The position numbers were made by a program, and so were the translations under genes. Under the pieces are notes generated by a model. That model was not told where the DNA came from, made no database searches, and saw only the letters and a list, made by a program, of their open reading frames with translations. From Rhodothermales bacterium (GTDB taxonomy: Bacteria; Bacteroidota; Rhodothermia; Rhodothermales; JANQRZ01), in assembly GCA_039944855.1 (NCBI GenBank), contig JBDUXZ010000005.1:372676-436675 (forward strand): a stretch of DNA of 64,000 nucleotides, written 5' to 3'. This document shows, piece by piece, positions 2,967 through 32,997 of this stretch; the stretch's first letter is position 1, and each line of letters begins with the position of its first letter.

Positions 2967-3180
2967 GCAGACGGAGGCCAGCGCCGGGGCGTGAGAGAGG
3001 AGAAGGGATTCCTAAAGTAGCGCACCGGCGCCACATCCGAGCGAACGAAACCTCGCGACAGCGGCGAGCGGGCCGGGATGAAGTTCGCGTCCGATCCCGC
3101 TGCACAGCATGCAGCGCGGGAACTCACCCCCAGCGAACGGGAGTATCGCGTTCCATTCTAACCTGCTGCTCCACCCCGCT

Positions 3181-4002
3181 ATGCCCTCCCATTCCCACGA
3201 CCCGGCCCACCCCGCCTTCGCTCCCACGACGGGCGGCGACGGGGCCTCCGCGCTGACCGACGCGCACCTCCTCCTCGCCCAGCACCAGCGCAAAGTGCAG
3301 GCCCTCGTCGACAACGAGACCGGCGTCCGCTTCGAGTCGCTCGCCCTCTTCGCCGACCCCCTCTTCGAGCTGTACGACCTCGACGCGGCGGCAGCCTTCG
3401 AACTCCACGCGCGGCCCGACGAAGCCGACGAAACGACCGTCGCGGTGATGGAGGCGGCCCGGCTGCTGTGGGCGTACTTCTCGCTCCCCCAGCGGGAGCG
3501 CGCCGCGCGCCACGACGCCCTCGCCGCCTTCCTCCTCGGCCCCGCTGCCACGCCCGAAGACGAGGCCGACCTCGACGCCCTCCTCGACACCGTCGAGTCG
3601 CACTGGGACATGCTCACGCCCGAGGACATCGCGCTCGCCGAAGACATCGACGTCGACACACTCGATTTCGACGTGCTCCTCGCGCACCCGGCGTTCGCGC
3701 AGCCCGTCGCCGAGTTCGCCACGGAGCGGACCTACGGCCCGGATCGCCTCAGCGAGATGGAGGCCCGCGCCCTCTTCGCCCAGCCCCTCCTGGAGCGCGA
3801 GGACGATCCCGATGCCCTCGACGCGGCGATGGAGCGCGCCGACGATTACTGGTCGCTCGCCCAGCTTCGCGGGCTCGAACGGGACGCGTTCCTCGATGAG
3901 ATCGTAAGCGCCAACGCGCTCGACGACGCCGAGGCCGAACAGATCCGCACCGAAGCCCAGCAAATGCTCGACCGCTTCCAGTCGCTCTTCCCGAACTCGT
4001 AG
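3181..4002 (+). CDS. Hypothetical acidic protein (start uncertain; ATG at 3109 also possible)
   Basis: Long ORF with D/E/A/L-rich, non-repetitive translation. No family recognised. Confidence 0.45.
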   Translation: MPSHSHDPAHPAFAPTTGGDGASALTDAHLLLAQHQRKVQALVDNETGVRFESLALFADPLFELYDLDAAAAFELHARPDEADETTVAVMEAARLLWAYFSLPQRERAARHDALAAFLLGPAATPEDEADLDALLDTVESHWDMLTPEDIALAEDIDVDTLDFDVLLAHPAFAQPVAEFATERTYGPDRLSEMEARALFAQPLLEREDDPDALDAAMERADDYWSLAQLRGLERDAFLDEIVSANALDDAEAEQIRTEAQQMLDRFQSLFPNS

Positions 4003-4085: not shown

Positions 4086-5261
4086 ATGTCCCGCCCCCGC
4101 ATCGAACACCTCGGCATCGCCGTCCGTGACGCCGACGCCATCACCGACCTCTACGAACGCCTCTTCGGCTACCGTCCGTACCAGCGCCAGACCGTCGAGC
4201 GCGAGGGCGTTAGCACCGTGTTCTTCGACGCGGGCGGGGCGAAGCTCGAGCTCCTCGAAGCGACGCGGGACGACTCACCGATCGCAGGGTTCGTCGAGAA
4301 GCGGGGCGAGGGGCTGCACCACGTCGCCTTCGAGGTCCGGGACATCCACGCCGAGATGCAGCGGCTCCGCGACGCCGGCTTCCGCCTGCTGAACGATGAG
4401 CCGAAACGCGGCGCCGACGAGAAGCTGATCTTCTTCGTCCATCCGAAATCGACCGGCGGCGTGCTCGTCGAGTTCTGCCAGCGCGCGCCCGAGCCGCTGG
4501 AGCCGCAGTTCGCGCCGTTCCGCGGCGGGCGGATCGCGTATTTCCTCGGTGGGCCGGAGGACGCGCCGCCACTCATCGTGCTCCACGGCGCGCTCGGCTC
4601 GACGGAATTGGAGACGCGGCGGCTCCTCCCCCACCTCCAGCAACACTTTAAGACGATCGCCCTAGACTTTGCCGCGCATGGTGCGTCGGACGACTTCGCT
4701 GAAGAAGAACTGCTGACGATGGACTTCTTCGCCGAGAGCATCCCCGACGTGCTCGACCACCTCGGTATCGCGCGCGCCCACGTGTTCGGGTTCTCGATGG
4801 GCGGCGCCGTCGCGCTCTACGTCGCCCGCACGCACCCGGAGCGCATCGACCGCCTCGCCGTGCACGGCGTCAATGTGCAGTGGGACGCCGACGAGGTCAC
4901 CGTGATGACCGTCGGGATGGACCCGGAGACGATGGAGGGCGTCGCGCCGCGCTGGGCCGAGCGGCTGAGCGCCACGCACGGCGCCGACCGGTGGCGCGGG
5001 CTGACGCGGCGGATGATCGCCTTCACCGACGCCCTCCCCGACCGTCGCTTCCCGAACGAGGAGCTAGCACAAGTCACCGCGCCGACCCTCATCTCTACGG
5101 GCGACCAGGACCGCTACTTCCGCATCGAGCACGCGCTCAACCTCTGGCAGACGCTGCCCGACGCCCGCCTCGCCGTCCACCCCGGCCTCGACCACCCGAT
5201 CCAGGGCGTCGACCCCGAGCGCTTCGCGGAGCTGATGACGGCCTTTTTGCTGGAGCGGTGA
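4086..5261 (+). CDS. Methylmalonyl-CoA epimerase (VOC/glyoxalase fold) fused to an alpha/beta-hydrolase domain
   Basis: The N-terminal ~135 aa (RIEHLGIAV...GEGLHHVAFEV...HPKSTGGVLVEFCQ) is epimerase-like. The C-terminal part has VLHGALGS and the nucleophile elbow GFSMGG. Start taken at MSRPRIEHLG. Confidence 0.75.
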   Translation: MSRPRIEHLGIAVRDADAITDLYERLFGYRPYQRQTVEREGVSTVFFDAGGAKLELLEATRDDSPIAGFVEKRGEGLHHVAFEVRDIHAEMQRLRDAGFRLLNDEPKRGADEKLIFFVHPKSTGGVLVEFCQRAPEPLEPQFAPFRGGRIAYFLGGPEDAPPLIVLHGALGSTELETRRLLPHLQQHFKTIALDFAAHGASDDFAEEELLTMDFFAESIPDVLDHLGIARAHVFGFSMGGAVALYVARTHPERIDRLAVHGVNVQWDADEVTVMTVGMDPETMEGVAPRWAERLSATHGADRWRGLTRRMIAFTDALPDRRFPNEELAQVTAPTLISTGDQDRYFRIEHALNLWQTLPDARLAVHPGLDHPIQGVDPERFAELMTAFLLER

Positions 5262-5268
5262 CGACGGC

Positions 5269-5296
5269 GTAGAGACGCAGCATGCTGCGTCTCTAC
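5269..5296. repeat. REP-like perfect 28-nt palindrome GTAGAGACGCAGCATGCTGCGTCTCTAC
   Basis: Perfectly self-complementary. Related copies at 5330-5358, 49151-49178 and 49206-49232. Confidence 0.9.
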
Positions 5297-5329
5297 TGTG
5301 ACCCCAGCGGGGGGGCGGTCGGCCCCACG

Positions 5330-5358
5330 GTAGAGATGCCCCGGCGGGACGTCTCTAC
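5330..5358. repeat. REP-like imperfect palindrome with the same GTAGAGA...TCTCTAC stem ends
   Basis: GTAGAGATGCCCCGGCGGGACGTCTCTAC shares its outer stem with the 5269-5296 element. Confidence 0.75.
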
Positions 5359-5461
5359 GGATGGCAGAACGTTCGTCGGAAACGTTCGGAGCGCGCGGCG
5401 GGTACGGCAACGGGGTGTCACCCCCGCTCGCTAGCTTTGCCGTTTTCGCCTGCCTCGCCCG

Positions 5462-8208: not shown

Positions 8209-9243
8209 ATGCTCAATTACATCTGGGCCGGGCTGATCGTCTTCAGCCTCGTCTTCGCCCTCTTCTACGACGTCCGCGACCTCACCCGCGACACCTTCCG
8301 CAACGACGCCGACCTCCCCGTCGCGCTCGTTTTCCCCGAGGGCTACGACCCCGGCGCCCGCCGCACCCCCATCGCCGTCCGCGTCGATCCGACGGCGTAC
8401 GGCGCGTTTTATGACACCGACGCCCGGCCGGACTCCGCCTACGACGCCATGCTGATCCGCACGCGTGAAGGCCTGCAAGTCCGCTTCGCCGAGGGGTCGA
8501 ACCTGCCCGAGCCGCTCGCTACGATCCGCGACTTCACGAACTCGCGCGACGAGCAGCTGCAGGGCACGCTCGTCGGCGCGCTCCCAGCCGCGCCGGGCGT
8601 CGCGGCCGTCCCCGTCGCGCTCGACTTCCCCCGCGTCCGCTTCGTGAAGATGAACGCGATCGCCGGGGCCGCGCTCGACTTCGCCGAGACGGCGGCGAGC
8701 ATCGCGCTGAGCCTCATCGGCGTGCTCGCGCTCTTCCTCGGCCTGCTGCAGATTGCCGAGGACTCGGGCATCATCTATTCGCTCGTCAAGCTCGTCCGGC
8801 CCGTCCTCCGCCCGCTCTTCCCCGACATCCCCGCCGACCACCCCGCCTTCGGGATGATCGCGCTCAACATGGCGGCGAACGTGTTCGGGCTCGGGAATGC
8901 CGCCACGCCGTTCGGGATCAAAGCGATGGAGGAATTGCAGGAGCTCAACCCCACCGAGGACACGGCGACGGACTCGATGGTGATGCTCCTCGCCATCAAC
9001 ACGGCGAGCGTGCAGCTCGTCCCGCCCGTCCTCCTCCTCGCCCTCATGGGGCTCCAGATCAACCAGCTCATCTTCGCGATCTGGATCACGACGGGCGTCT
9101 CGCTCGCCGTCGCCATCATCGCCGCCAAGCTGTTCGCCCGCCTGCCGAAGTCGCGGGCCTCGAACCCACACCGGCTCGCCGCAGCCGGGGACCCGATGCA
9201 CCGAGAAGACGATGCGCCGCCGGAGCCACCCCCCACTTCCTGA
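8209..9243 (+). CDS. Nucleoside-recognition-domain membrane protein, SpmA-like, with a ~125-aa insertion after TM1
   Basis: MLNYIWAGLIVFSL... and LRPLFPDIPADHPAFGMIALNMAANVFGLGNAATPFGIKAM match the SpmA pattern. Confidence 0.75.
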   Translation: MLNYIWAGLIVFSLVFALFYDVRDLTRDTFRNDADLPVALVFPEGYDPGARRTPIAVRVDPTAYGAFYDTDARPDSAYDAMLIRTREGLQVRFAEGSNLPEPLATIRDFTNSRDEQLQGTLVGALPAAPGVAAVPVALDFPRVRFVKMNAIAGAALDFAETAASIALSLIGVLALFLGLLQIAEDSGIIYSLVKLVRPVLRPLFPDIPADHPAFGMIALNMAANVFGLGNAATPFGIKAMEELQELNPTEDTATDSMVMLLAINTASVQLVPPVLLLALMGLQINQLIFAIWITTGVSLAVAIIAAKLFARLPKSRASNPHRLAAAGDPMHREDDAPPEPPPTS

Positions 9244-20423: not shown

Positions 20424-21149
20424 TTAAGGCGTTTTCTTTGCCGTCTCCGGGCGGATTCGTGTGGCCAGGACCGGCGCCGAGCGCAACCCCGACCGGCTCG
20501 TTATGGTCACCTCGGCCCCCGCCGCGTGCCCATCGCGCAACGCCTCTGGTTCGGGCACCACCCCTTCCGTTACCGCGTCCATCGCGGCCTCATCGATCCG
20601 CCGATCACCCGAATACAGTCCGTTCTGGCCGTTTTTCGTCAGGAACGTGGCGACGGCCGGCATGCCCGAATCGGTGAGTGCGAGCGCGAGCGCCCCGGCC
20701 ACCGCCCCGCCGTTTACCTCCTCCGCCTCCCCGCTCGGACCCGGAAGGAGAGCCGTCACGACGGGCACCGCGCCCTGCGCGACGAGATCACGCAGCCACG
20801 TCACTTTTTTAGCGAGAATCCCGCCCTCGGCCCGCTGCAGGAGCCCGCGACCCGACGCTTCGATCCCCACGGCCGCGACGCCTGCCTCGTTGAGCGTGTG
20901 GACGATCTGCCGGTTTAGCTCCCGCGCCGCCCGCGCCACGATGCGCCGATCCTCGGTCGACTCGACGCGGAGCACGCCGCCGTCGAACGTCGGGAATCGC
21001 CCCTGCGCTTCGAGCGCGCGCTCCGCCGCCTCCCCTGCGCCGTGGACGAGCACGCACGGCGCGCCGAGGTGCTGCACGTCACGGGCGAAGCCGGTGAGGA
21101 AGAGCGGGTCGCCGAGGTGGTAGCGGTCGAGGTAGAGGACGTAGGTCAT
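20424..21149 (-). CDS. Amino-acid-kinase superfamily protein, ArgB-like, without the canonical N-terminal K-x-G-G motif
   Basis: VLVHGAGEAAE and later AAK-like segments are present. The N-terminus reads YVLYLDRYHLGDP instead of hhKhGG. Confidence 0.5.
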   Translation of the reverse strand: MTYVLYLDRYHLGDPLFLTGFARDVQHLGAPCVLVHGAGEAAERALEAQGRFPTFDGGVLRVESTEDRRIVARAARELNRQIVHTLNEAGVAAVGIEASGRGLLQRAEGGILAKKVTWLRDLVAQGAVPVVTALLPGPSGEAEEVNGGAVAGALALALTDSGMPAVATFLTKNGQNGLYSGDRRIDEAAMDAVTEGVVPEPEALRDGHAAGAEVTITSRSGLRSAPVLATRIRPETAKKTP

Positions 21150-21189
21150 GCGAGGGCAGGTCGGGCGGACGGAGAGGGCGTGCCCCTTC

Positions 21190-23031
<1,842 letters not shown>

Positions 23032-23248
23032 AATTTCTAACCATCCTCTGCATGATCTTTTCTGGAAACGTTCGGTCGTTCCCTGCCGCTTTCCTTACAT
23101 CGAACAAAGAAACGCCTGAACCAGTGTGGAGAGGGAAGCCCTTGCGGGCGGAGTCCGGGTAGCGAGTTATCCACACGCCTTGTGGTCGGCTCGGTCTCCC
23201 TGCATCTTTCGGGACCCCTGCCCCACCCGCCCTCACCCGATCCGCCGG

Positions 23249-26200
23249 ATGCCCGAGTTCTGCCACCTCCACTGCCACACCCAGTATTCCCTCCTCGACG
23301 GCGCCGCCCGCATCAAAAAGCTCGTCGGCCGCGCGGCAGAGCTAGAGATCCCGGCGCTCGCCATCACCGACCACGGCAATCTCTTCGGCGTCCCCGAATT
23401 CTACACGTACGCGAAGCAGGCGAATGTCCAGCCCATCATCGGCTGCGAGTTCTACGTCACGCCCAGCGGGATGGGCGACACCAACGACCGCACGCGCTAC
23501 CACCAGGTCCTCCTCGCCAAAGACGAAGTCGGCTACCGCAACCTGATCAAGCTCTCGTCGATGAGCTATACCGACGGGTTCTACTACAAGCCGCGCATCG
23601 ACCGCGACACGCTGCGCGCCCACAGCGAAGGGCTCGTCGCGACGACGTGCTGCCTCCAGGGCGAGGTATTGCAGACGATCCTGAACAAAGGCGAGGTCGC
23701 CGGGCTGAAGGTGTTCAAGGAGTACCTCGACATCTTCGGCGAGGACTACTACATCGAGATCCAGGACCACGGCATCCCCGAGCAGCGGAAGTGCAACGCC
23801 GTACTGCTCCGGTGGGCCGAGCAGTTCGGCGTCAAGGTCGTCGCCACGAACGACGTGCACTACGTCGAGCAGGACGACGCGGCGGCGCAGGACGTGCTCC
23901 TCTGCCTCCAGACCGGCCGCGCGCTGAACGACCCGACACGGATGCGGTTCGAGAACGACCAGTTCTTCCTGAAGTCGGCGCCGCAGATGCAGGCGGCGTT
24001 CGCGGACTCCGTCGGCGACGCGCTCGTCGTCGACCGCGCGCTCGACACGACGCGCGAGATCGCGGACAAGTGCAGGCTCGACCTCCAGATGGGGACGCTG
24101 CTGATGCCGCACTTCCCGCTCCCCGAGGCGTTCGAGCTGCCCGGCGCCTACCTCCGCCACCTCGTCTACGAAGGCGCGAAGGTGCGCTACGGGCGCGAGG
24201 GCATCAGCGAGCTCATCCGCGAACGGCTCGACTACGAGCTGAAGGTGATCTCCGAGATGGGCTTCGACGGCTACTTCCTCATCGTGCAGGACTTCACGAC
24301 GGCCGCCCGCGACCTCGGCGTGAGCGTCGGGCCGGGCCGAGGCTCCGCCGCCGGATCGTGCGTCGCCTACTGCCTCGGCATCACGAACATCGACCCGCTC
24401 CAGTACGACCTCCTCTTCGAGCGCTTCCTCAACCCCGAGCGCATCTCGATGCCGGACATCGACATCGACTTCGACGACCGGGGCCGCGCCAAAGTCATCG
24501 ACTACGTCGTGCAGAAGTACGGCCGCGAGTCGGTCTGCCAGATCGTGACGTTCGGGACGATGGGCTCGAAGTCGGTCATCCGCGACGTGGCGCGCGTGCT
24601 CGACATCCCGCTCCCCGAGGCCGACCGGATCTCGAAGCTCGTGCCCGACGGCGTGAAGGTGTCGCTCGAAGACGCGAAGTCGAGCGTCAAGGAGTTCGCC
24701 GAGCTATACAAGTCGCCGGACCCGCAGATCCGCAAGCTGATGCACTACGCGACGGTGCTCGAAGGCTCGGCGCGGCACACGGGCGTCCACGCCGCCGGCG
24801 TGATCATCGCCCCCGGCGACGTGTCGCAGTACGTCCCCGTCTCGATCCAGAAAGGCAAGGGCGGCGCGGGCGACGCCGTCGTGACGCAGTACGACGGGAA
24901 GTGGATCGAGGAGTTCGGCCTGCTGAAGATGGACTTCCTCGGGCTTAAAACCCTGACGGTTCTCGACGATGCCCTTGCCCTCATCAAGACCGGCCACGGC
25001 GTCGAGATCGACCTCGACAGCCTGCCGCTCGACGACGAGAAGACGTACAAACTCTTCCAGAAAGGCGACACCGTCGGCATTTTCCAGTTTGAGTCGGAGG
25101 GGATGCGCGAGTGGATGCGGAAGCTGAAGCCGACGGGCATCGACGACCTCATCGCAATGAACGCGCTCTACCGGCCGGGCCCGATGGACCTCATCCCGAG
25201 CTACATCGACCGGAAGCACGGCCGCGAAGAGGTGGAGCACCCGCACCCGATGCTCGCCGAGATCCTGGAGCCGACCTACGGCATCCCGGTCTACCAGGAG
25301 CAGGTGATGCAGATGGCGCAGGTGATGGGCGGCTACACGCTCGGCGGCGCCGACCTGCTGCGCCGCGCGATGGGCAAGAAGAAGCAGGAGGAGATGGATA
25401 CGCAGCGCGTGATCTTCGTCGAGGGCGCGACGAAGAAGGACGTGGACGAGAAGACGGCGAACGAGGTCTTCGACATGATGGCGAAGTTCGCGGGCTACGG
25501 CTTCAACAAGTCGCACAGTGCCGCCTACAGTTTGGTGGCGTATCACACCGCGTACCTGAAGGCACACTACCCGGCCGAGTTCATGGCCGCCGTGCTGACG
25601 AACGAGGCGGGCGACTCGAAGAAGCTCGCCGTCGCGCTCGACGAGGCGCGGCGGATGGGGCTCGACCTCCTCCCCCCCTGCGTCAACCGCTCCGAGCACC
25701 ACTTCAACGTCGAAGTCGAGGACGGGCAGCGGTTCGTGCGCTACGGGCTCTACGCCGTCAAAACCGTCGGCGCGGGCGCGATCGAGGCGATCGTGAACGA
25801 GCGGGCCGAGCGTGGGCCGTACGAGTCGCTCTTCGACTTCTGCAAGCGCGTCGACCTCCACTCGGTCAACAAGACGGCCCTGGAGGCGCTCACGCGGGCG
25901 GGCGCGTTCGACTTCTGCGAGGCGCACCGGGCGCAGCTCTCCGGGGCCTCCGACGACGCCTACCGCTTCGGGCAGCAGCACCAGGTCAACAAGGCGCTCG
26001 GCCAGAACTCCCTCTTCGGCGGCAGCGACCCCGGCGTCGACAACTTCGAGCCGTCGCTTCCGCACGTCGAGCCGTGGACGCGCGGCGAGCAGCTCCGCCA
26101 CGAGAAAGAGCTGATGGGGTTCTACGTCTCCGGCCACCCGCTCGACGCCTACGAGGCCGAGGTCAACGCCTTCGTCAGCGCCTACCTCGGGCGGCCCGAC

Positions 26201-26722
26201 GACATCGACCTCGAGCGCGACCACAAGGTGTGCGGCATCATCACCGAAGTCAAGCAGATCACGACGAAGGCCGGCAAGCCGATGGCGTTCCTCACGCTCG
26301 AGGACCAGACCGGGCAGGGCGAGGTCGTCCTATTCACGAGCGTGTTCGAGCGGCACAGCCACATGCTCCGCACGGACGAGGTGGTGATGGTGCGCGGGCA
26401 GGCCGAGGTGCGCGGCGGCAGCGTGAAGATCAAAGCGCAGTCCGTGGACGCGATGTGGAAGGTGCGCGAGGAGTACGTCAAGCGCATCATCCTCCGCCTC
26501 AACGCTGACGACACCCTCCCCGAGGCGATGGACGAGTTCTACGCGCTCTGCCAGCGCAACAAAGGCCCCGTGCAACTGCTGTTCGACGTGGAGACGCGGG
26601 AGATCCCGCAGCCCGTCCGCCTCCGCGCGCAGAAAGGCATGGTCGAGCCGACGCCCGAGCTGATGCAGGGGATGTACCGGCTGTTCGGTCGGAAGATGGT
26701 GGCGCTGGAGGGGGATGCGTGA
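23249..26722 (+). CDS. dnaE: DNA polymerase III alpha subunit
   Basis: PHP N-terminus MPEFCHLHCHTQYSLLDGA, polymerase core, HhH and OB regions. ~1157 aa. Confidence 0.95.
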   Translation: MPEFCHLHCHTQYSLLDGAARIKKLVGRAAELEIPALAITDHGNLFGVPEFYTYAKQANVQPIIGCEFYVTPSGMGDTNDRTRYHQVLLAKDEVGYRNLIKLSSMSYTDGFYYKPRIDRDTLRAHSEGLVATTCCLQGEVLQTILNKGEVAGLKVFKEYLDIFGEDYYIEIQDHGIPEQRKCNAVLLRWAEQFGVKVVATNDVHYVEQDDAAAQDVLLCLQTGRALNDPTRMRFENDQFFLKSAPQMQAAFADSVGDALVVDRALDTTREIADKCRLDLQMGTLLMPHFPLPEAFELPGAYLRHLVYEGAKVRYGREGISELIRERLDYELKVISEMGFDGYFLIVQDFTTAARDLGVSVGPGRGSAAGSCVAYCLGITNIDPLQYDLLFERFLNPERISMPDIDIDFDDRGRAKVIDYVVQKYGRESVCQIVTFGTMGSKSVIRDVARVLDIPLPEADRISKLVPDGVKVSLEDAKSSVKEFAELYKSPDPQIRKLMHYATVLEGSARHTGVHAAGVIIAPGDVSQYVPVSIQKGKGGAGDAVVTQYDGKWIEEFGLLKMDFLGLKTLTVLDDALALIKTGHGVEIDLDSLPLDDEKTYKLFQKGDTVGIFQFESEGMREWMRKLKPTGIDDLIAMNALYRPGPMDLIPSYIDRKHGREEVEHPHPMLAEILEPTYGIPVYQEQVMQMAQVMGGYTLGGADLLRRAMGKKKQEEMDTQRVIFVEGATKKDVDEKTANEVFDMMAKFAGYGFNKSHSAAYSLVAYHTAYLKAHYPAEFMAAVLTNEAGDSKKLAVALDEARRMGLDLLPPCVNRSEHHFNVEVEDGQRFVRYGLYAVKTVGAGAIEAIVNERAERGPYESLFDFCKRVDLHSVNKTALEALTRAGAFDFCEAHRAQLSGASDDAYRFGQQHQVNKALGQNSLFGGSDPGVDNFEPSLPHVEPWTRGEQLRHEKELMGFYVSGHPLDAYEAEVNAFVSAYLGRPDDIDLERDHKVCGIITEVKQITTKAGKPMAFLTLEDQTGQGEVVLFTSVFERHSHMLRTDEVVMVRGQAEVRGGSVKIKAQSVDAMWKVREEYVKRIILRLNADDTLPEAMDEFYALCQRNKGPVQLLFDVETREIPQPVRLRAQKGMVEPTPELMQGMYRLFGRKMVALEGDA

Positions 26723-27186
26723 AGCCGACCGTCTATCTCGAAACCTCGTTCGTGGGCTACCTCACTGCTCGCCCGGCGCGGGACGTGATCGTGCTGGCGA
26801 ACCAGCAGCTCACGCGGGAATGGTGGGAGCGGCGGCGCGAGGACTTTGAGATGTTCGCCTCCGCCGCTGTCCGCCGAGAGGCCGGGGCCGGGAATGCCGA
26901 GGCCGCCCGCGAGCGGCTGGCCGTGCTGGAGGGCATCGCTTCGCTGTCCGTGACTGACGAGGCGGGGCGACTCGCTGGAGCTTTCCTTGCCGAGGGAGCG
27001 CTGCCCGAAAAGGCGGCCGAAGATGCGCTCCACGTCGCGATCGCCGCGACGAACGGGATGGACTATTTGCTCACCTGGAACTGCAAGCACATCGCCAACG
27101 CCACGCTCCGAAACCTGATCGAGCAGGTCTGCCGTTCAAACGGCTACGTAACCCCCACGATCTGCACCCCCGCTGAGCTTTTCTAA
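26719..27186 (+). CDS. PIN-like (VapC-type) protein; GTG start overlaps the dnaE stop (GTGA)
   Basis: The first-strand VYLETSF lies 5 residues from the start. EDALHVAIAA and LLTWNCKHIAN are motifs I associate with a PIN-like toxin family. Confidence 0.65.
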   Translation: MKPTVYLETSFVGYLTARPARDVIVLANQQLTREWWERRREDFEMFASAAVRREAGAGNAEAARERLAVLEGIASLSVTDEAGRLAGAFLAEGALPEKAAEDALHVAIAATNGMDYLLTWNCKHIANATLRNLIEQVCRSNGYVTPTICTPAELF

Positions 27187-27193
27187 CGAGACC

Positions 27194-27403
27194 ATGCTTC
27201 CTGACCTCCCCGACTCCGAGCAGTGGGACGACCCCATCGTCGCCGAGATTCGCGCCGTCCGTGACGCCCACGCCCGCACGTTCAATTACGACCTCGACGC
27301 CATCTTTGCCGACATCAAGCGCCACGAAGACGAACTCCGCCGACAGGGCTACACGTTTGTGGACCGCTCAAAGGAAGCGAAGCAGGCTGGCGCTGCGGAG
27401 TAG
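27194..27403 (+). CDS. Small partner protein of the PIN-like gene (putative antitoxin, 69 aa)
   Basis: Starts 8 nt after the PIN-like stop on the same strand. DDPIVAEIRAVRDAHARTFNYDLDAIFADIK resembles small proteins seen next to such PIN genes. Confidence 0.5.
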   Translation: MLPDLPDSEQWDDPIVAEIRAVRDAHARTFNYDLDAIFADIKRHEDELRRQGYTFVDRSKEAKQAGAAE

Positions 27404-27408
27404 CGAAT

Positions 27409-27535
27409 GCGGGAGATCCCGCAGCCCGTCCGCCTGCGCGCCCAGAAAGGCATGGTCGAGCCGACGCCGGAGCTGATGCAGGGGATGTACCGCCGCTTCG
27501 GCCGAAAGATGGTGGCGCTAGAAGGAGATGCTTAG
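27409..27535 (+). pseudogene. Displaced duplicate of the dnaE 3' end (last 42 codons plus a TAG stop)
   Basis: 127 nt align without gaps to 26596-26722, with 14 mismatches by my count. Translation is identical except one L-to-R change. Confidence 0.9.
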
Positions 27536-27571
27536 GTTAGTGATATCTCTATCCAAACACCATGAACGCTT

Positions 27572-28948
27572 ATGCTATTCTCTCGAAGGGCATCCGGCAA
27601 CAGCGCTGTCCCAATACGTCATACAGAAATTATAATTGAAAATGTCCGCGTTTTTTCAGGCAGACATAGAATTCCAATCAAGCCGTTAACATTTGTTACG
27701 GGGGAGAATAGCTCAGGAAAGTCAACGCTGATAGCAATGATATCGGCGATGTACGATTATGAGAGTTATCCACTTCAGCCACGATTCAATGCTCCGCCTT
27801 TTAACCTAGGCGGCTACGACACCATAGCTACTGTGTTGGAGGACACGCAGGAGCCAGCTAAGTCTTTCAGTATTGGATTTTACAAAGAGGGAGGAGAGAG
27901 AGGGACCACGATATCTGTAGTAGCTACGTACAATGAAAAACTAGGAAATCCTGACTTCCGCAAGCTCACCATTGATTATGATGACGTCCAGTATCAGATT
28001 GAGGCCTTTGATTCAGAGGATAATGTGTTCGAGGGCCACATAACGGTACGAAAGGGGAAAGTTGAAATAGGTTCCGATTTCAATTTCCCTCGTATTTTTG
28101 GTGATGCAAGAAGGATTAGACTTGACGAAATAGCTTATCACATATTTAGGGACAACGAGGACATTATTAGAGCTAAGCGTGACGACTCGGACTATCGTTG
28201 GATTTTCGAAAGAATATATGATCTAGGATATTTTTCCGTGCCAGGGCGCGCCCTATCCATTGCGCCTATCCGAACAAAACCTGAGCGGATCTATGGACAC
28301 GCAGAGGCAGAATATCGCCCCGCTGGTGATCATATTCCCTTCACACTCTCTCGCTTGTTTTCGCAAGGTAGTGCTTGGGAAGAAAAACGTGCGGTAATAT
28401 CAGCCCTCAATACTTTCGGCGAGGAATCTGGAATGTTTGAAGGCTTTAAGGTTCACAAACTCGGAAAACATGCTAGCGACCCTTTTCAGTTGACAGTGAC
28501 TATTGATGGAAATGATCGCAATCTAGTTGACGTGGGATACGGTGTAAGCCAAGCTCTGCCTATTGTAGTACAAAGCGTGCTCACGGCAGATAGCCGTCTA
28601 CTTCTCCTCCAACAGCCTGAAGTACATCTTCATCCAAAGGCACAAGCTGCTCTAGGTTCTTTCTTTTCGAGATTGGTTTCAGACGGCACCCGAGAGATAA
28701 TTGTAGAAACTCATAGTGATTACATTATAGACCGAGTCCGCCAAGAAGTAGCACGAGGCAATATTGATCCTGACCTTATACAAATAATTTTCATGCACAA
28801 AGACTCATCTGGAGCAAGAGCCCACAATATAGATTTAGATAGGAACGGCAATATCGTGAACGCCCCTCCGTATTACCGCGAGTTCTTCCTCAGGGAGGAA
28901 ATGAACCTCTTAACCCGTTCATCTGAAGAACTCGGCCCAACTGAATAA
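27572..28948 (+). CDS. ABC-type AAA ATPase (AAA_21/AAA_15/DUF3696-like)
   Basis: Walker A GENSSGKST, GYGVSQALPIV, LLLLQQPEVHLHP, ETHSDY. Lies in an AT-rich region. 458 aa. Confidence 0.8.
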   Translation: MLFSRRASGNSAVPIRHTEIIIENVRVFSGRHRIPIKPLTFVTGENSSGKSTLIAMISAMYDYESYPLQPRFNAPPFNLGGYDTIATVLEDTQEPAKSFSIGFYKEGGERGTTISVVATYNEKLGNPDFRKLTIDYDDVQYQIEAFDSEDNVFEGHITVRKGKVEIGSDFNFPRIFGDARRIRLDEIAYHIFRDNEDIIRAKRDDSDYRWIFERIYDLGYFSVPGRALSIAPIRTKPERIYGHAEAEYRPAGDHIPFTLSRLFSQGSAWEEKRAVISALNTFGEESGMFEGFKVHKLGKHASDPFQLTVTIDGNDRNLVDVGYGVSQALPIVVQSVLTADSRLLLLQQPEVHLHPKAQAALGSFFSRLVSDGTREIIVETHSDYIIDRVRQEVARGNIDPDLIQIIFMHKDSSGARAHNIDLDRNGNIVNAPPYYREFFLREEMNLLTRSSEELGPTE

Positions 28949-29391
28949 TGTGCATTATCATTGATAACAATGTCGTCCATCGTGTTTTCTTCACTGATAA
29001 TGATCCCGATTTCTCACATCTAAGAGAGTGCCTGTTCGGCAATGGCCCTTGTGACGTAAAGTTGGTGTACGGTGGGGGTCTTAAGAGAGAATATGTCGTT
29101 AGCGCTAGGGTCGCTTCTACCCTGCGTGTTCTCGACCAAGCAGGAAGAGCAATACAAGTCACAGATGCCAGCGTAGACAGTGAAACCCAAGTGGTCGAGG
29201 AAATGAATCAATGTGTATCAGATGACCCGCACGTGATTGCCTTAGCCCGTGTTAGCAATGTTAGGCTACTGTGCTCTCACGACATGAACTTACATACTGA
29301 CTTCAGAAACCATCACCTTGTCAACGGTCCTCGGGGCAACATTTATCAAAATCCAGGGCACAATCATCTGTTGCAAAGACACTGTAGCTAA
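28948..29391 (+). CDS. Small PIN-like protein (147 aa), translationally coupled to the ATPase gene
   Basis: TAATG overlap with the upstream stop. MCIIIDNNV, SDDPHVIALA and CSHDMNL give PIN-like spacing of acidic residues. The fold assignment is inferred. Confidence 0.6.
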   Translation: MCIIIDNNVVHRVFFTDNDPDFSHLRECLFGNGPCDVKLVYGGGLKREYVVSARVASTLRVLDQAGRAIQVTDASVDSETQVVEEMNQCVSDDPHVIALARVSNVRLLCSHDMNLHTDFRNHHLVNGPRGNIYQNPGHNHLLQRHCS

Positions 29392-29665
29392 GACCGTCGG
29401 TGTATCCTTGGCCCTGAACTGCATGTAGGATGCAGAACCCGGACTGGCACGACTTCGGTGATGACCTGGCGCCGGGCTGACGCAGCACGTTCGTAGAACC
29501 GGAGGCGAGGTCGGAGCAACGATCCCGGCGTTGACAACTCCTGAAGGGGGGTCCGCAACACGCGCCACGATCCCCGCAACCCTCCCCTCGGGCTGCCGTA
29601 CGTCGGACCGTATGCTAACGGGAGTCCCGACCCGCTCCTGCTCTCCCCTGCTCGCCTCCTACCCG

Positions 29666-32077
29666 ATGCGCTTCGTCCCGCTCCTCGCCCTCCTCTGCTT
29701 CGTCGCCACGGCGCCGCTCGCCCAGCCCGGCCCGCGCGGCGGCGGCCTCACCGGCCGCGTGCTCGACGCCGCCACCGGCGACCCGCTCCCCCTCGCCACC
29801 GTCGCCCTCTACCAGCTCCCCGACACGACGTTCGTCACGGGCGGCGCGGCCGACCCCGAGGGGCGCTTCGACCTCGCCCCCCTCCGCCCCGGCGACTACG
29901 ACGTGCGCATCAGCGTCGTGGGCTACACCACGGAGCACCGCGCCGCGTCCATCCGCCCCGGCCCACCCACCGACCTCGGCGAGATCCGCCTCGAAGAGTC
30001 GGCCGAGGTGCTCGAAGGGGTAAGCGTCGAGGCCGAGCGCGATCTGATCGAGCAGCGCGCCGACCGCACGGTCTACAACGTCGGCGACCAGCCGATCACG
30101 TCGGGCGACAATGTGCTCGAGACGCTCAAAACGCTGCCGTCCGTCGAGGTGGACCAGGACGACAACATCTCGCTGCGCGGCGGCCGGAACGTGGCGATCC
30201 ACGTCAACGGTCGGCCCGTGCCCGTCGGCGGCCAGTTCCTCGCGGCCTACCTCAAGCAGGTCGGGGCCGACGCCGTCGAGCGCGTCGAGGTCATCCCGAA
30301 CCCGTCGGCGCGCTACGAGCCCGACGGGCTGAGCGGTATCATCAACATCGTGCTGAAGGAAGACGCGCCGGACCGCGGCCTCTCCGGCGGCGTCACGGCC
30401 GGCGGCGGCACGCGGCCCGAGGCGAACCTCGGCCTCAACCTCGCCTACCAGCGCGGCAAGTTCGACACGTACGGCTCCTACGGCTACTTCTACAACCGCT
30501 TCGACTTCGACGGCTCGACCGAGCGCGATTACCTCGGCACCACGTCCGACCTCCTCACGCTCGACAACATCCAGACCGGCGACCGCGTCTTCGCCAGCCA
30601 TTTCGCGAACGCGACGGTCGATTACACGCTCGCCGAGCGCACGGTCCTCTCGCTCAGCGGGAACGCCTCCGTGCGCGACGGCGGCGGCGACAACCTCCAG
30701 TCGATTGCCTCGGTCTTCCGCGACGACGGCCGCGAGACCCTCGCCGAGCGCCTCTCCGATACCGATTCCGACGGGACGAACACCACCGGCACGCTCTCCT
30801 TCCAGCGCCGCTTCAACGAGGACGGCACGCACGAGCTCCGCGCCGAAGCCCGCGTTTCGGCCAACACGAACACCGAAGATCAGGTGTTCGAAGGCACCTT
30901 CGACGGGACCGCCGAGCGGTCGAGCTACCTCGACGAGTCGGACCGGACGGAGAACTGGCTCCAGCTCGATTACACGCAGCCGCTCGGAGACATCCGCCTC
31001 GAAACCGGCGCGAAGGCTACGTGGGAGACGATCGAGAACGACGTCCGCTTCGGCTCGGGCGGAGCCGACGGGCTGGCCGAAACCGCGACCGACGGCTTCG
31101 ACTACGACCGCTCGATCTACGCCGCCTACCTCCAGGCCGCCGTGCCCATCGGCGCGAAGATCGAAGTGCAGGCCGGCCTCCGCGCCGAATACGCCGACCG
31201 CTCGTTCGCGATTGACAGCGAGGGCACGCCCAACGACTTCGACTACACGAGTCTTTTCCCGAGCGCGTTCGCGATCTACAACGTCGGGCCGGGCACGTCG
31301 GTCAAGGGCAGCTACAGCCGGCGCATCAACCGTCCCGGCACGTGGTTCCTCTCGCCCTTCAGCAGCCCCGAAGACGTGACCGTCACGCAGCGCGGCAACC
31401 CCGGCCTGCGCCCGGAATACACGGACTCGTACGAGCTCGCGCTCCAGTACAAGTTCTTCGTCACGCTGACGCCGTTCTACCGCCGCACGACGGATGTCAT
31501 CGCCCGCCGCTTCGTCGTCGAGGACGGCCGGACGTTCTTCACGAGCGACAACTTCGCCACAGAGCAGTCCTACGGCGCGGACCTCACGCTCGCGGCGGCG
31601 ATCCCGAAGACGCCGGTGCGCGGGTTCGTCTCGGGCAGCGTCTTCCGCGCCGAGACCGACGGCGGCGCCGTGGACCCGACCGTGGACTTCGGCGTCACGT
31701 CGTGGTCGGCGCGGGCGAGCCTGCAGGCGCAGCTCCGAGCGAGCACGTCGCTCCAGTTCTTCGGGTTCTTCCGCGGGCCGCGCGCGATCGCGAACGGGCG
31801 CTCGTCGGGCTTCGGGTTCACGTCGCTGGGGCTCCAGCAGAAGTTCCTCGGCGACGCGCTCTCGCTCAGCCTCCGCCTCAACGATCCGTTCTCCACGACG
31901 CGCTTCGAGTTCGAGTCGGAGAACGAGGCGTACTCGGAGCTAGGCATCCGCGACCCGGCGCAGCGCTCGTTCTCCGCGACGCTGACGTGGACCTTCGGGA
32001 AGCCGGCCGAGCGCCGCCGGACGCAGCAGCAAGGGCAACAAGGCGGCGGCATGGACGACGGCGGCATCGGCCTCTGA
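29666..32077 (+). CDS. TonB-dependent-receptor-like outer-membrane beta-barrel protein with a carboxypeptidase-regulatory-like N-domain
   Basis: Signal peptide MRFVPLLALLCFVATAPLAQ. GRVLDAATGDPLPLATVAL (CarbopepD_reg-like). Plug-like ISLRGGRNVAIHVNGRPV. Long beta-rich C-terminus. Confidence 0.8.
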   Translation: MRFVPLLALLCFVATAPLAQPGPRGGGLTGRVLDAATGDPLPLATVALYQLPDTTFVTGGAADPEGRFDLAPLRPGDYDVRISVVGYTTEHRAASIRPGPPTDLGEIRLEESAEVLEGVSVEAERDLIEQRADRTVYNVGDQPITSGDNVLETLKTLPSVEVDQDDNISLRGGRNVAIHVNGRPVPVGGQFLAAYLKQVGADAVERVEVIPNPSARYEPDGLSGIINIVLKEDAPDRGLSGGVTAGGGTRPEANLGLNLAYQRGKFDTYGSYGYFYNRFDFDGSTERDYLGTTSDLLTLDNIQTGDRVFASHFANATVDYTLAERTVLSLSGNASVRDGGGDNLQSIASVFRDDGRETLAERLSDTDSDGTNTTGTLSFQRRFNEDGTHELRAEARVSANTNTEDQVFEGTFDGTAERSSYLDESDRTENWLQLDYTQPLGDIRLETGAKATWETIENDVRFGSGGADGLAETATDGFDYDRSIYAAYLQAAVPIGAKIEVQAGLRAEYADRSFAIDSEGTPNDFDYTSLFPSAFAIYNVGPGTSVKGSYSRRINRPGTWFLSPFSSPEDVTVTQRGNPGLRPEYTDSYELALQYKFFVTLTPFYRRTTDVIARRFVVEDGRTFFTSDNFATEQSYGADLTLAAAIPKTPVRGFVSGSVFRAETDGGAVDPTVDFGVTSWSARASLQAQLRASTSLQFFGFFRGPRAIANGRSSGFGFTSLGLQQKFLGDALSLSLRLNDPFSTTRFEFESENEAYSELGIRDPAQRSFSATLTWTFGKPAERRRTQQQGQQGGGMDDGGIGL

Positions 32078-32205: not shown

Positions 32206-32997
32206 ATGCCCCGCAATCGCGCCAGCCGCCCCGCCCCGTACCTCGCCGAACTCGCCTCGCCGCTGAGCGCCGAGGCCCCGCCGTCGCTCGGCCCGCGGCT
32301 CCGCGTGGCGACGTACAACGTCCACCGCTGGGCGGGCGTCCGGGGCGGGCGGAAGTACGAGCCCGAGCCGGTCCTCACCGTCCTCGGTGAACTCGACGCC
32401 GACGTGATCGCGCTGCAGGAGGTCCTCCGCCCGTGGGACAACGGCGACCCGCTGCGCGAGGCGTCGCAGCGGCTCGGCTTCCACCTCGCGTTCGTCGTCA
32501 CCCGAATCCACAAGCGTGGCGCGCTCGGGAATGCGATCCTCTCGCGCTGGCCCCTCGCCCACGCCGAGGCTATCGACCTCTCATTCGGGCGGCTGGAGCG
32601 ACGCGCCGCCCTCGCCGTCCGCCTCACCGACGCCGACGGGACCCCGCCGCTGTCGGTCGCCTCGACGCACCTCGCGATCGTGGACCGAACGCGGACGCGG
32701 CAGGTCGAGGCCCTCCTCGATCACCCGCACTTCAACGATGGGCCGTCCGTGCTCCTCGGCGACATGAATGCGTGGCGGAAGAACCCGGCGTCGCGCAACC
32801 TGCAAGGCTTCGCCGAGCGGCACCACAACCGGGCGTGGCCGCCGTCGTACCCGAGCGTCCGCCCCGTCCTCGCGCTCGACCGGGTGTACGCGCGCGGCGT
32901 CCACGTCGAGGATCTGCACGCGCACGAGAGCGCGGCGAGCCGGCAGGCGTCGGACCACCTCCCCGTCGTCGGCACGGTGGTGCTGGACGACTATTGA
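32206..32997 (+). CDS. Endonuclease/exonuclease/phosphatase (EEP) family protein
   Basis: VATYNVHRW, DVIALQEV, GDMNAW, SDHLPV. Confidence 0.8.
   Translation: MPRNRASRPAPYLAELASPLSAEAPPSLGPRLRVATYNVHRWAGVRGGRKYEPEPVLTVLGELDADVIALQEVLRPWDNGDPLREASQRLGFHLAFVVTRIHKRGALGNAILSRWPLAHAEAIDLSFGRLERRAALAVRLTDADGTPPLSVASTHLAIVDRTRTRQVEALLDHPHFNDGPSVLLGDMNAWRKNPASRNLQGFAERHHNRAWPPSYPSVRPVLALDRVYARGVHVEDLHAHESAASRQASDHLPVVGTVVLDDY

Follow-up and report, generated by a model that had tools for sequence, protein, structure and literature searches.

In E. coli icd, e14 and phage 21 supply the 3' end of the gene, and the native end is kept as the pseudogene fragment icdC; the icd and icdC copies differ mainly at synonymous sites, and recombination removes the insert to leave a chimeric gene (PMC13626634). 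At Rhs and T6SS loci, incoming modules have been proposed to displace gene 3' ends through one-sided homology (PMC5361080). We analysed a window of 64,000 nucleotides from a Rhodothermales bacterium, in which an insert lies between two copies of the end of dnaE. The insertion footprint is of a known type, found here without any recombinase gene.

As at icd, the target gene is intact, the native end lies displaced beyond the insert, and the copies differ mainly at synonymous positions. The target's 3' end forms a direct repeat around the insert, the tail attached to dnaE (t1) derives from the element, the downstream tail (t2) is native, and sites in relatives are empty or otherwise occupied; the recombinase of the e14/phage 21 case is lacking. 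Whereas the 15-kb prophage e14 encodes an integrase and is excised on SOS induction, the insert here is 813 nt long, encodes no recombinase and has dnaE as its target. The locus also resembles the homology-facilitated illegitimate recombination of Rhs, CDI and T6SS loci, with an incoming homologous anchor bringing new genes and the old 3' end orphaned downstream, the t2 relic being kept directly after the last inserted gene. At those polymorphic toxin loci, however, the displaced end encodes a different toxin tip and orphans build up in arrays, whereas here a housekeeping polymerase is the target, both tails encode the same peptide and t2 is the lone relic. No array of successive orphan ends was found in the window or at 25 other dnaE loci.

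The repeated dnaE end

The unit bracketed by the repeat consists of t1, a VapC-fold PIN gene and a 69-aa partner gene, orf69 (Table 1). The two tails align without gaps over 127 nt with 113 identical bases (89% identity), which bears out the duplication with 14 mismatches described in the earlier note, and at the base composition of the window chance alone would give ~4e-37 pairs of this kind. The right limit of the similarity coincides with the stop codon; the left limit is 26596, and the preceding ACG/ATG codon could extend the match by 3 nt. No third copy was found in the whole 64 kb. Where eleven synonymous changes had been counted before, we find ten synonymous sense codons; the Leu-to-Arg codon (CTG to CGC) and the altered stop (TGA to TAG), with two base changes each, stand as described. 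Four independent assemblies, representing three Rhodothermales lineages, have the tail-PIN-orf69-tail layout: the window, L001 (an NCBI MAG), and L120 and L121 (two separate JGI metagenomes). Because the layout is identical in L001, L120 and L121, the repeat is not an assembly artefact.

Table 1. Features at and downstream of the dnaE 3' end (window coordinates)
Feature	Position	Strand	Remarks
dnaE (DNA polymerase III alpha)	23126..26722	+	Pfam PHP, DNA_pol3_alpha, finger domain, HHH_6, OB fold; start codon tentative
Left flank within dnaE	26150..26595	+	nearly identical to PIN-less L122
t1, dnaE-attached tail	26596..26722	+	last 42 codons and TGA; PIN-linked surrogate end
Shine-Dalgarno-like GGAGG	26707..26711	+	in the Leu-Glu-Gly codons of t1, 7 nt upstream of the PIN start codon
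PIN/VapC-fold gene	26719..27186	+	155 aa; start codon GTG, overlapping the stop of dnaE (GTGA)
orf69, 69-aa partner gene	27194..27403	+	candidate antitoxin; directly 3' of the PIN gene
t2, relic tail	27409..27535	+	displaced native dnaE tail; 83/84 match to the L122 tail
AT-rich defence-type islet	27536..29391	+	GC 0.42-0.49
AAA_15/AAA_21 ATPase	27572..28948	+	Pfam AAA_15/AAA_21; PADLOC NsnB 7e-43
147-aa gene	28948..29391	+	second islet gene
GIY-YIG gene 3' relic	29433..29480	+	QNPDWHDFGDDLA matches the L122 GIY-YIG C-terminus at 12/13 residues
TonB-dependent-receptor-like outer membrane protein	29531..32077	+	Pfam OMP_b-brl_3, Plug, CarboxypepD_reg
Endonuclease/exonuclease/phosphatase-family gene	32218..32988	+	conserved right flank; 81% aa identity to L005 12690-13493

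Empty or alternatively occupied sites, on which the earlier note had made its insertion reading depend, were found in L003-L006 and in L122, the closest relative, which lacks the PIN gene. Over the 446 nt immediately left of the unit the window is 97.8% identical to L122, compared to 88.4% in the 427 nt upstream of 26150 (dnaE background ~88%). At the left edge of the repeat the affinity flips from L122 to the PIN-bearing L001: t1 is 86.6% identical to L122, and informative sites divide L122:L001 as 34:3 in the left flank and 6:13 within t1 (Fisher P = 5e-6). The t2 match to the L122 tail, which is functional, covers the first 84 nt. Since t2 and the left flank match the empty L122 while t1 turns to L001, these alignments identify t2 as the displaced native end and t1 as a surrogate end tied to the module. 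The sequence comparison, with three block-bearing lineages, one very close empty relative and few informative sites in the tail, shows the 813-nt unit as a recent gain or loss bounded exactly by the repeat. dnaE now terminates in t1; t2 and the pre-existing defence islet have moved 813 nt downstream, and t2 no longer has a role as a dnaE end. The claim that the repeat reflects an inserted unit carrying a surrogate dnaE end, and not a local slip, is supported by both the empty sites and the tail affinities.

The block is also patchily distributed with respect to the host tree. Nucleotide identity of dnaE to the window is 92.2% for L122 (no block), 90.5% for L001 (block) and 89.4% for L002 (no block), and the product is ~90% identical in amino acids to those of L001 and L002. 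The view that the two tails had come from different lineages agrees with the affinities of t2 to L122 and of t1 to L001, but both tails group within the host clade and only position 60 of the tail is fixed between t1 and t2 across the three lineages (C in all three PIN-linked t1; G or T in every t2 and PIN-less tail). Position 27 is nearly fixed; there t2 of L001 has the t1 state, although at position 60 it is t2-like. In L120, three private sites are common to its own t1 and t2, compared with zero in the window and L001, and the sites of L120 t1, tested as a two-block recombinant, side alternately with the window and with L002.

Pairs of t2 copies differ by synonymous and non-synonymous codons in ratios of 7:4, 9:4 and 12:2; the copies use three different stop codons, and indels are confined to the first ~12 nt beside the junction. 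This pattern fits a 3' part that in each recipient was its recently displaced working end, and gene conversion by t1 could be another source of the synonymous-dominated divergence. Given these codon changes and the L122/L001 affinity switch, we dropped t2 as a single ancient, neutrally decaying relic.

The PIN module and the hotspot downstream

The AlphaFold2 model of the 155-aa protein (pLDDT 93) predicts a PIN-domain/VapC fold: in a Foldseek search of the PDB the top ~20 matches were VapC toxins, the best being VapC11, VapC20 and VapC2 (target-normalised TM 0.60-0.69). A sequence-level PDB search with the family gave spurious helical-repeat matches only, so that the VapC match needs the fold level. 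Among 4357 homologs some match PF01850, and the NCBI name is VapC family toxin; Pfam hits to PF01850 stay below threshold. Three acidic residues that may belong to the active site, E8, E54 and D102, do not vary across 24 homologs. A small homologous gene lies 3' of the PIN gene in other phyla too, with 13 invariant residues; the 69-aa partner itself matched nothing in Pfam, NCBIfam or PADLOC, and no VapB or other antitoxin family. The locus is like type II VapBC in its VapC/PIN fold and small conserved partner gene, and unlike it in that the partner lies downstream instead of upstream, has no VapB family match, and the PIN gene overlaps the dnaE stop with no promoter region of its own. A promoter and terminator scan of 26300-29700 found none, with models that omit Bacteroidota-type promoters.

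In other phyla the PIN gene and its small partner form a promiscuous two-gene unit, bracketed by attC-like repeats or displaced ends of neighbouring genes. Bracketing repeats were found at 16 of 55 modules compared with 9 of 301 control positions (P = 1e-8) and were mostly attC-like sites; the gene-end class accounts for 4 of 55 (P = 0.12 against background), and we rejected the module family as a specific maker of gene-end duplications. As in integron toxin-antitoxin cassettes, homologous modules are often flanked by attC-like repeats (RYYYAAC...GTTRRRY, long imperfect hairpins), for example in L068, L057 and L049, at a spacing of ~0.8-1.0 kb comparable to the 813-nt unit. Unlike integron cassettes, the window repeat is coding sequence without an attC motif; folding of the tails showed no attC-like structure and no excess over shuffled sequences (z = -0.3 and +0.7), no attC lies in the 5 nt between orf69 and t2 (27404-27408), and no integron integrase was found among the annotated neighbours.

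A defence/toxin-antitoxin hotspot, with six or more alternative contents, has its left border at the very 3' end of dnaE. The interval from dnaE to the Exo_endo_phos gene, which is also present in L003 and L122 and whose L005 copy matches the Pfam family of that name, contains ATPases, SIR2_2, FRG/DUF262-like genes, YefM-YoeB, or nothing. The locus shares with defence-island hotspots this variable cargo between conserved genes; it differs in having its left border within an essential coding region, the last ~8 codons of which are re-coded along with the islet. The contrast between an AT-rich islet and a GC-rich PIN module, drawn in the earlier note, is confirmed (module GC 0.61-0.71). Our islet is common to L120 and L121, with 91% amino acid identity in the ATPase, and the similarity stops just past the stop codon of the 147-aa gene. 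The GIY-YIG gene flanking the hotspot is intact in L120, L121 and L122; the TonB-dependent-receptor-like gene is present at the hotspot in the window only, with no positional homolog in L001-L006.

The AT-rich islets re-code the last ~6-8 codons of dnaE, a pattern behind which stand few genomes, as a protein search with the dnaE C-terminus gave 3 matches. Of the A/T-ending codons ascribed to the second copy, those in the last ~6 codons are real, but the first 33 codons of t2 are like copy 1 (31/33 GC3). The islet had also been credited with its own 127-nt tail, but co-variation with islet type reaches no further than the last ~20-25 nt. Nor do the two elements share a single att site as proposed: the crossover of the PIN unit maps to tail positions 0-27 in the window and L120, and the islet junction to ~105-125. 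A third tail copy at the right edge of the islet, to be expected had the islet come in with a tail of its own, was rejected (13/18 match only, at 29541-29558), and the GIY-YIG relic was found there instead of a displaced tail.

The window and L120 share the islet, and over their last 43 nt the two t2 copies differ by 6 synonymous versus 1 non-synonymous changes with the stop retained, which is expected if t2 was still a working dnaE end while the islet diverged. This alignment lends modest support to the proposal that the islet came first and the PIN unit later.

How the unit may have moved

We believe that the 127-nt repeat probably marks the insertion of a unit with a surrogate end into an essential gene, and that the unit has spread by homologous recombination, the mechanism we infer in preference to others. 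The unit would have arisen once, since the t1|PIN and orf69|t2 junctions lie at identical positions in the window, L001 and L120; shared by these three lineages, the orf69|t2 junction, which has GCGGAG/GCGGGAG-like similarity only, would therefore reflect one event. That original insertion may have been RecA-type or site-specific. Transfer among related genomes would then proceed by ordinary homologous recombination, with dnaE as the left arm. On the right, the relic tail would act as a portable arm by pairing with the tail of the recipient, which would make transfer independent of the hypervariable DNA downstream, and recombination between t1 and t2 would remove the unit precisely. The GTGA overlap and the GGAGG upstream probably couple translation of the PIN gene to that of dnaE, and the two genes are probably transcribed together.

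An e14/phage 21-icd-type element is an unlikely alternative in our estimate. It would have carried an attP with the last 127 nt of dnaE and a core at the 5' edge of the repeat, its integrase acting in trans or since lost, and the AT-rich islets would have used a second core near AGATGGT, ~25 nt before the stop. The architecture matches icd/icdC around e14 (PMC13626634), and the breakpoint falls inside an identical stretch of 27 nt with which the repeat begins on its left, where a site-specific core would place it just as well as homologous recombination. The dnaE end hosts different cargo repeatedly; in four tails the last 8 codons turn to A/T just past the conserved AGATGGT (P = 9e-6), and the re-coded 18-mer GTTATGTTAGAAGGTGAT occurs in both L005 and L122 despite their differing cargo. 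Against it, and against the recombinase expected in the earlier note, the search for recombinase domains came up empty for every ORF of the 813-nt unit, for the islets of the window, L005, L120 and L122, and for the genes adjoining them, and no viral contig carries the tail. A recombinase could be encoded elsewhere in the genome, of which 64 kb are in view here. No displaced tail end lies at the right edge of any islet, those of L005 and L120 included, the mixed states of L001 t2 at positions 27 and 60 suggest a variable crossover point, and no report of dnaE as attB was found in the literature searched.

It is a good deal less than likely that the dnaE tail is a dedicated, recombinase-independent landing pad, in which islets would join at the last ~25 nt with their own re-coded ends and the PIN unit with its 127-nt surrogate and portable-arm relic. 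If true, this would be cassette exchange in which an essential gene, through its conserved sequence and its transcription, stands in for integrase and att site.

We consider an old in-place duplication of host DNA, for example a tandem copy of tail, PIN gene and orf69 followed by deletion, with t2 kept alike by gene conversion, to be improbable. The position of both tails inside the host clade and the one or two sites fixed between t1 and t2 agree with it, and the three private sites shared by t1 and t2 in L120 point to some gene conversion. The switch at the repeat edge (t2 to L122, t1 to L001) is, however, unexpected under it; the patchiness of the block against the dnaE tree and the lack of private t1/t2-shared sites in the window and L001 also count against it; it needs two steps, and no second PIN copy is left. 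That t2 is a selected small protein of 28-42 aa mimicking the DnaE C-terminus, modulating for example the replisome or the PIN toxin, is hardly credible: although a 42-aa ORF can be read uninterrupted from ATG 27407 in the window, none of the three lineages breaks the frame between the internal ATG at codon 14 and the stop, and t2 divergence is mostly synonymous, the full ORF is intact in this genome only (a 1-nt deletion in L001; a 2-nt deletion and loss of the ATG in L120 and L121), the changes include the non-conservative L to R, L to H and R to C, no promoter or ribosome-binding evidence came from the scan within its coverage, and recent displacement of each t2 explains the pattern without a function.

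Meaning for the Rhodothermales

On the surrogate-end reading, a small toxin-type module without mobility genes enters the coding end of an essential gene and does no damage, and the leftover gene fragment could itself render the module transferable between species with unrelated neighbouring DNA. The locus provides a test case for whether surrogate-end architecture requires an integrase. For annotation it counsels caution, as short "pseudogene" tails after essential genes can flag recent insertions. In this uncultured Rhodothermales clade, a hotspot of defence genes is bordered by the end of dnaE.

Duplication of the dnaE end and the genes it brackets

As the earlier note had reported, the end of dnaE (t1) and a second copy downstream (t2) gave a gapless alignment of 127 nt in which 14 positions differed. 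Such a repeat pair has a chance expectation of about 4e-37, and the window contained no third copy of the tail. The differences comprised 10 synonymous sense codons, one L-to-R codon with two changes and a stop change from TGA to TAG; the last two agreed with the earlier tally, but its 11 synonymous changes did not survive the recount. On the right the repeat ended exactly at the stop codon, and on the left at 26596. Together with the PIN gene and orf69, t1 forms an 813-nt unit, and t2 started 5 nt past the orf69 stop codon.

The PIN ORF had no significant match in Pfam, NCBIfam or PADLOC. Its family contained 4357 proteins, named VapC toxins at NCBI, and because a confident model of the protein (pLDDT 93) matched VapC structures, the label "PIN", first given from sequence alone, is correct at the level of the fold. 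In other phyla, too, an orf69 homolog followed the PIN gene. A GGAGG motif lies in the terminal Leu-Glu-Gly codons of dnaE (26707-26722), 7 nt upstream of the GTG that starts the PIN gene. The dnaE tail may supply transcription and a ribosome binding site to any gene inserted behind it.

Features of the window and of loci in relatives (L-numbers), with nucleotide identities of the window to L122 and L001
Feature	Position	Identity to L122	Identity to L001	Description
Histidine kinase gene	21190-23031 (-)			PAS/HisKA/HATPase; between conserved gene and dnaE
Upstream of tail	25723-26149	88.4%	88.5%	
Upstream of tail	26150-26595	97.8%	90.8%	
t1	26596-26722	86.6%	92.1%	end of dnaE
PIN gene	26719-27186			GTG start overlaps dnaE stop (GTGA)
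orf69	27194-27403			69 aa; conserved partner
t2	27409-27535	83/84 (first 84 nt)	80/84 (first 84 nt)	re-coded end at tail positions 97-126
AT-rich islet	27536-29391			AAA_15/AAA_21 ATPase (PADLOC NsnB 7e-43) and 147-aa protein
GIY-YIG gene relic	29433-29480			48 nt
TonB-receptor-like gene, then conserved Exo_endo_phos gene	after GIY-YIG relic			
Re-coded end, L005	10870-10897			
Re-coded end, L122	~8583-8610			
Re-coded end, L002	2814-2841			
Cargo, L003	between dnaE and Exo_endo_phos			YefM-YoeB and DUF3108-like gene
Cargo, L005	between dnaE and Exo_endo_phos			SIR2_2 gene
Cargo, L122	between dnaE and Exo_endo_phos			FRG and DUF262-like genes, then GIY-YIG, YefM-YoeB
Cargo, L006	between dnaE and Exo_endo_phos			nothing

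The 147-aa islet protein (28948-29391) matched nothing in Pfam, NCBIfam or PADLOC; it begins with MCIIIDNN..., which may point to a PIN-like or nuclease fold, and its gene was kept beside the islet ATPase in L120 and L121. The GIY-YIG relic corresponds to the C-terminus of a nuclease gene (QNPDWHDFGDDLAPG*), which L120, L121 and L122 have in intact form on the downstream side of the islet. The rest of this gene and the YefM-YoeB pair were absent from the window, with the TonB-receptor-like gene there instead. On the other side of dnaE, a homolog of 20424-21254 directly adjoined dnaE in L001, L003-L006 and L122; the histidine kinase gene stood between the two only in the window, so the upstream side of dnaE is also variable here.

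Relatives with and without the unit

The closest relative of the source organism, a Rhodothermales bacterium, was L122 (92.2% over 2.7 kb of dnaE), in which the block was absent. It was present in L001, a different species more distant from the window (dnaE 90.5% nucleotide identity), which had the same dnaE-PIN-orf69-t2 layout and a different islet with an OLD-like ATPase. L003-L006, like L122, had only one tail and lacked the PIN module, and a tail duplicate was found in none of 25 other dnaE loci. Before the tail, informative sites agreed with L122 rather than L001 by 34:3; in t1 the ratio turned to 6:13 (P = 5e-6), and the breakpoint lies in the repeat's first 27 nt. This switch and the near-identity to L122 indicate that a genome without the unit has the two flanks of the unit directly joined and almost identical in sequence, and that t1 is of other ancestry. 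This is the signature of a recent, repeat-delimited gain or loss of the unit, in which t2 is the native tail and t1 the module-linked surrogate. L122, lacking the unit and nearly identical to the window on both flanks, is thus an empty site of the kind sought among relatives, and the shift of t1 towards L001 upholds the surrogate gene end that the earlier note proposed.

L120 and L121, assembled from separate metagenomes and representing a third lineage, had the layout and the islet type of the window. The t1/PIN and orf69/t2 junctions occupied identical positions in all three lineages, which implies that the block arose once. The PIN proteins of L120 (163-633) and the window were only 59% identical; their genes were similar at the 5' and 3' ends and strongly divergent over the central ~220 nt, a pattern that suggests allele swapping within the module.

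Across the three lineages, the only fixed difference between t1 and t2 was at position 60, with position 27 nearly so. Synonymous to non-synonymous codon ratios were 7:4, 9:4 and 12:2 between t2 copies and 4:4, 9:4 and 9:7 between the functional t1 copies; the t2 copies were at least as constrained as functional t1, the neutral expectation being 25% synonymous. The t2 copies ended in three different stops (TAG, TGA and TAA), one per lineage, and their indels were confined to the first ~12 nt, beside the junction. The mostly synonymous divergence, the three stops and the position of the indels are not what t2 would show as a single ancient relic. The pattern fits the 3' part of each t2 having been its own lineage's working dnaE end until recently. 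Gene conversion between t1 and t2 is also likely to some extent, because t1 and t2 of L120 have three private sites in common. In all three lineages the t2 frame was open between an ATG inside it, at tail codon 14, and the stop (window 27446-27535), and all t2 indels lay upstream of this ATG.

The islets of the window and L120 had about 78-80% nucleotide identity, and the last 43 nt of t2 differed between them by 6 synonymous versus 1 non-synonymous changes, with a stop kept. Small as this sample is, it suggests that, when the PIN unit came, the islet already adjoined a functional tail, and to that extent favours the order proposed earlier, islet first and PIN later.

Cargo behind dnaE and the module in other genomes

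The stretch from dnaE to the Exo_endo_phos gene is a hotspot, with cargo that differed between L003, L005, L122 and L006. Tails directly abutting AT-rich DNA had A/T-shifted third positions only in the last 8 codons (GC3 of 3/8, 3/8, 4/8 and 4/8 versus 6-8/8 in other tails, P = 9e-6), with amino acids unchanged and the shift starting just past a conserved AGATGGT. A re-coded 18-mer, GTTATGTTAGAAGGTGAT, was identical in L005 and L122, whose cargo is unrelated (SIR2_2 versus FRG). The confinement of the shift and the common 18-mer indicate that islets enter within the dnaE coding end and bring along a short surrogate end, about 20-25 nt in length. No displaced native end was found at the far edge of the AT-rich islets abutting re-coded tails.

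In a survey of 80 metagenomic contexts of module homologs, direct repeats bracketed 16 of 55 modules, far more than the 9 of 301 control positions (P = 1e-8). Many of these repeats were attC-like (L068, L057, L049), which argues that the PIN module is often an integron-type cassette; the repeats (RYYYAAC...GTTRRRY, long imperfect hairpins) lay at 758-842 in L068, 437-585 in L057, and 2262-2346 and 3901-3985 in L049. Some homologs stood in multi-copy arrays of attC-like repeats (L079, L104, L085), suggesting chromosomal integron cassettes. A few bracketing repeats were displaced ends of a neighbour gene (L098, L099, L082, L035, L109), a class without significant enrichment when taken alone (P = 0.12). 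In L035 (Planctomycetes MAG JACOTG010000181.1), a homologous PIN module and an HTH gene lie between the copies of a 279-nt direct repeat (3176-3454 and 5108-5386, 92% identity), one copy lying within an intact peptidase M14 gene and the other being a 3'-truncated relic of that same gene. In L109, an 865-nt duplication (2021-2878 and 4515-5379, 92% identity) of a gene AbiEi-like by eye flanks a toxin-antitoxin cluster of a RelE/Phd-like pair, a PIN gene and a small partner.

Proposed origin and spread of the unit

Neither the 813-nt unit nor any islet encoded a recombinase, and no viral contig was found to carry the tail. No attC-like character was found in the dnaE tails. A less probable alternative, a site-specific recombinase acting in trans as with e14 and icd (PMC13626634), would give an identical architecture. 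We favour spread by homologous recombination after a single insertion. The block would have originated once by surrogate-end insertion and would then have spread by double-crossover, the left arm being dnaE and the right arm the relic tail, which would pair with the native tail of the recipient; t1 x t2 recombination would remove it. This model explains why the junctions are conserved and the distribution patchy, and why t2 has a decayed 5' edge and a clean 3' part. A proposal for T6SS and Rhs loci is that 3' ends are displaced through one-sided homology (PMC5361080).

The repeat is a real insertion footprint with clear limits. It belongs to a general kind already known, the surrogate or displaced gene end, and is not categorically new. 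Its setting is unusual: an integrase is absent, the module is of toxin type and 813 nt long, and the target is an essential polymerase gene.
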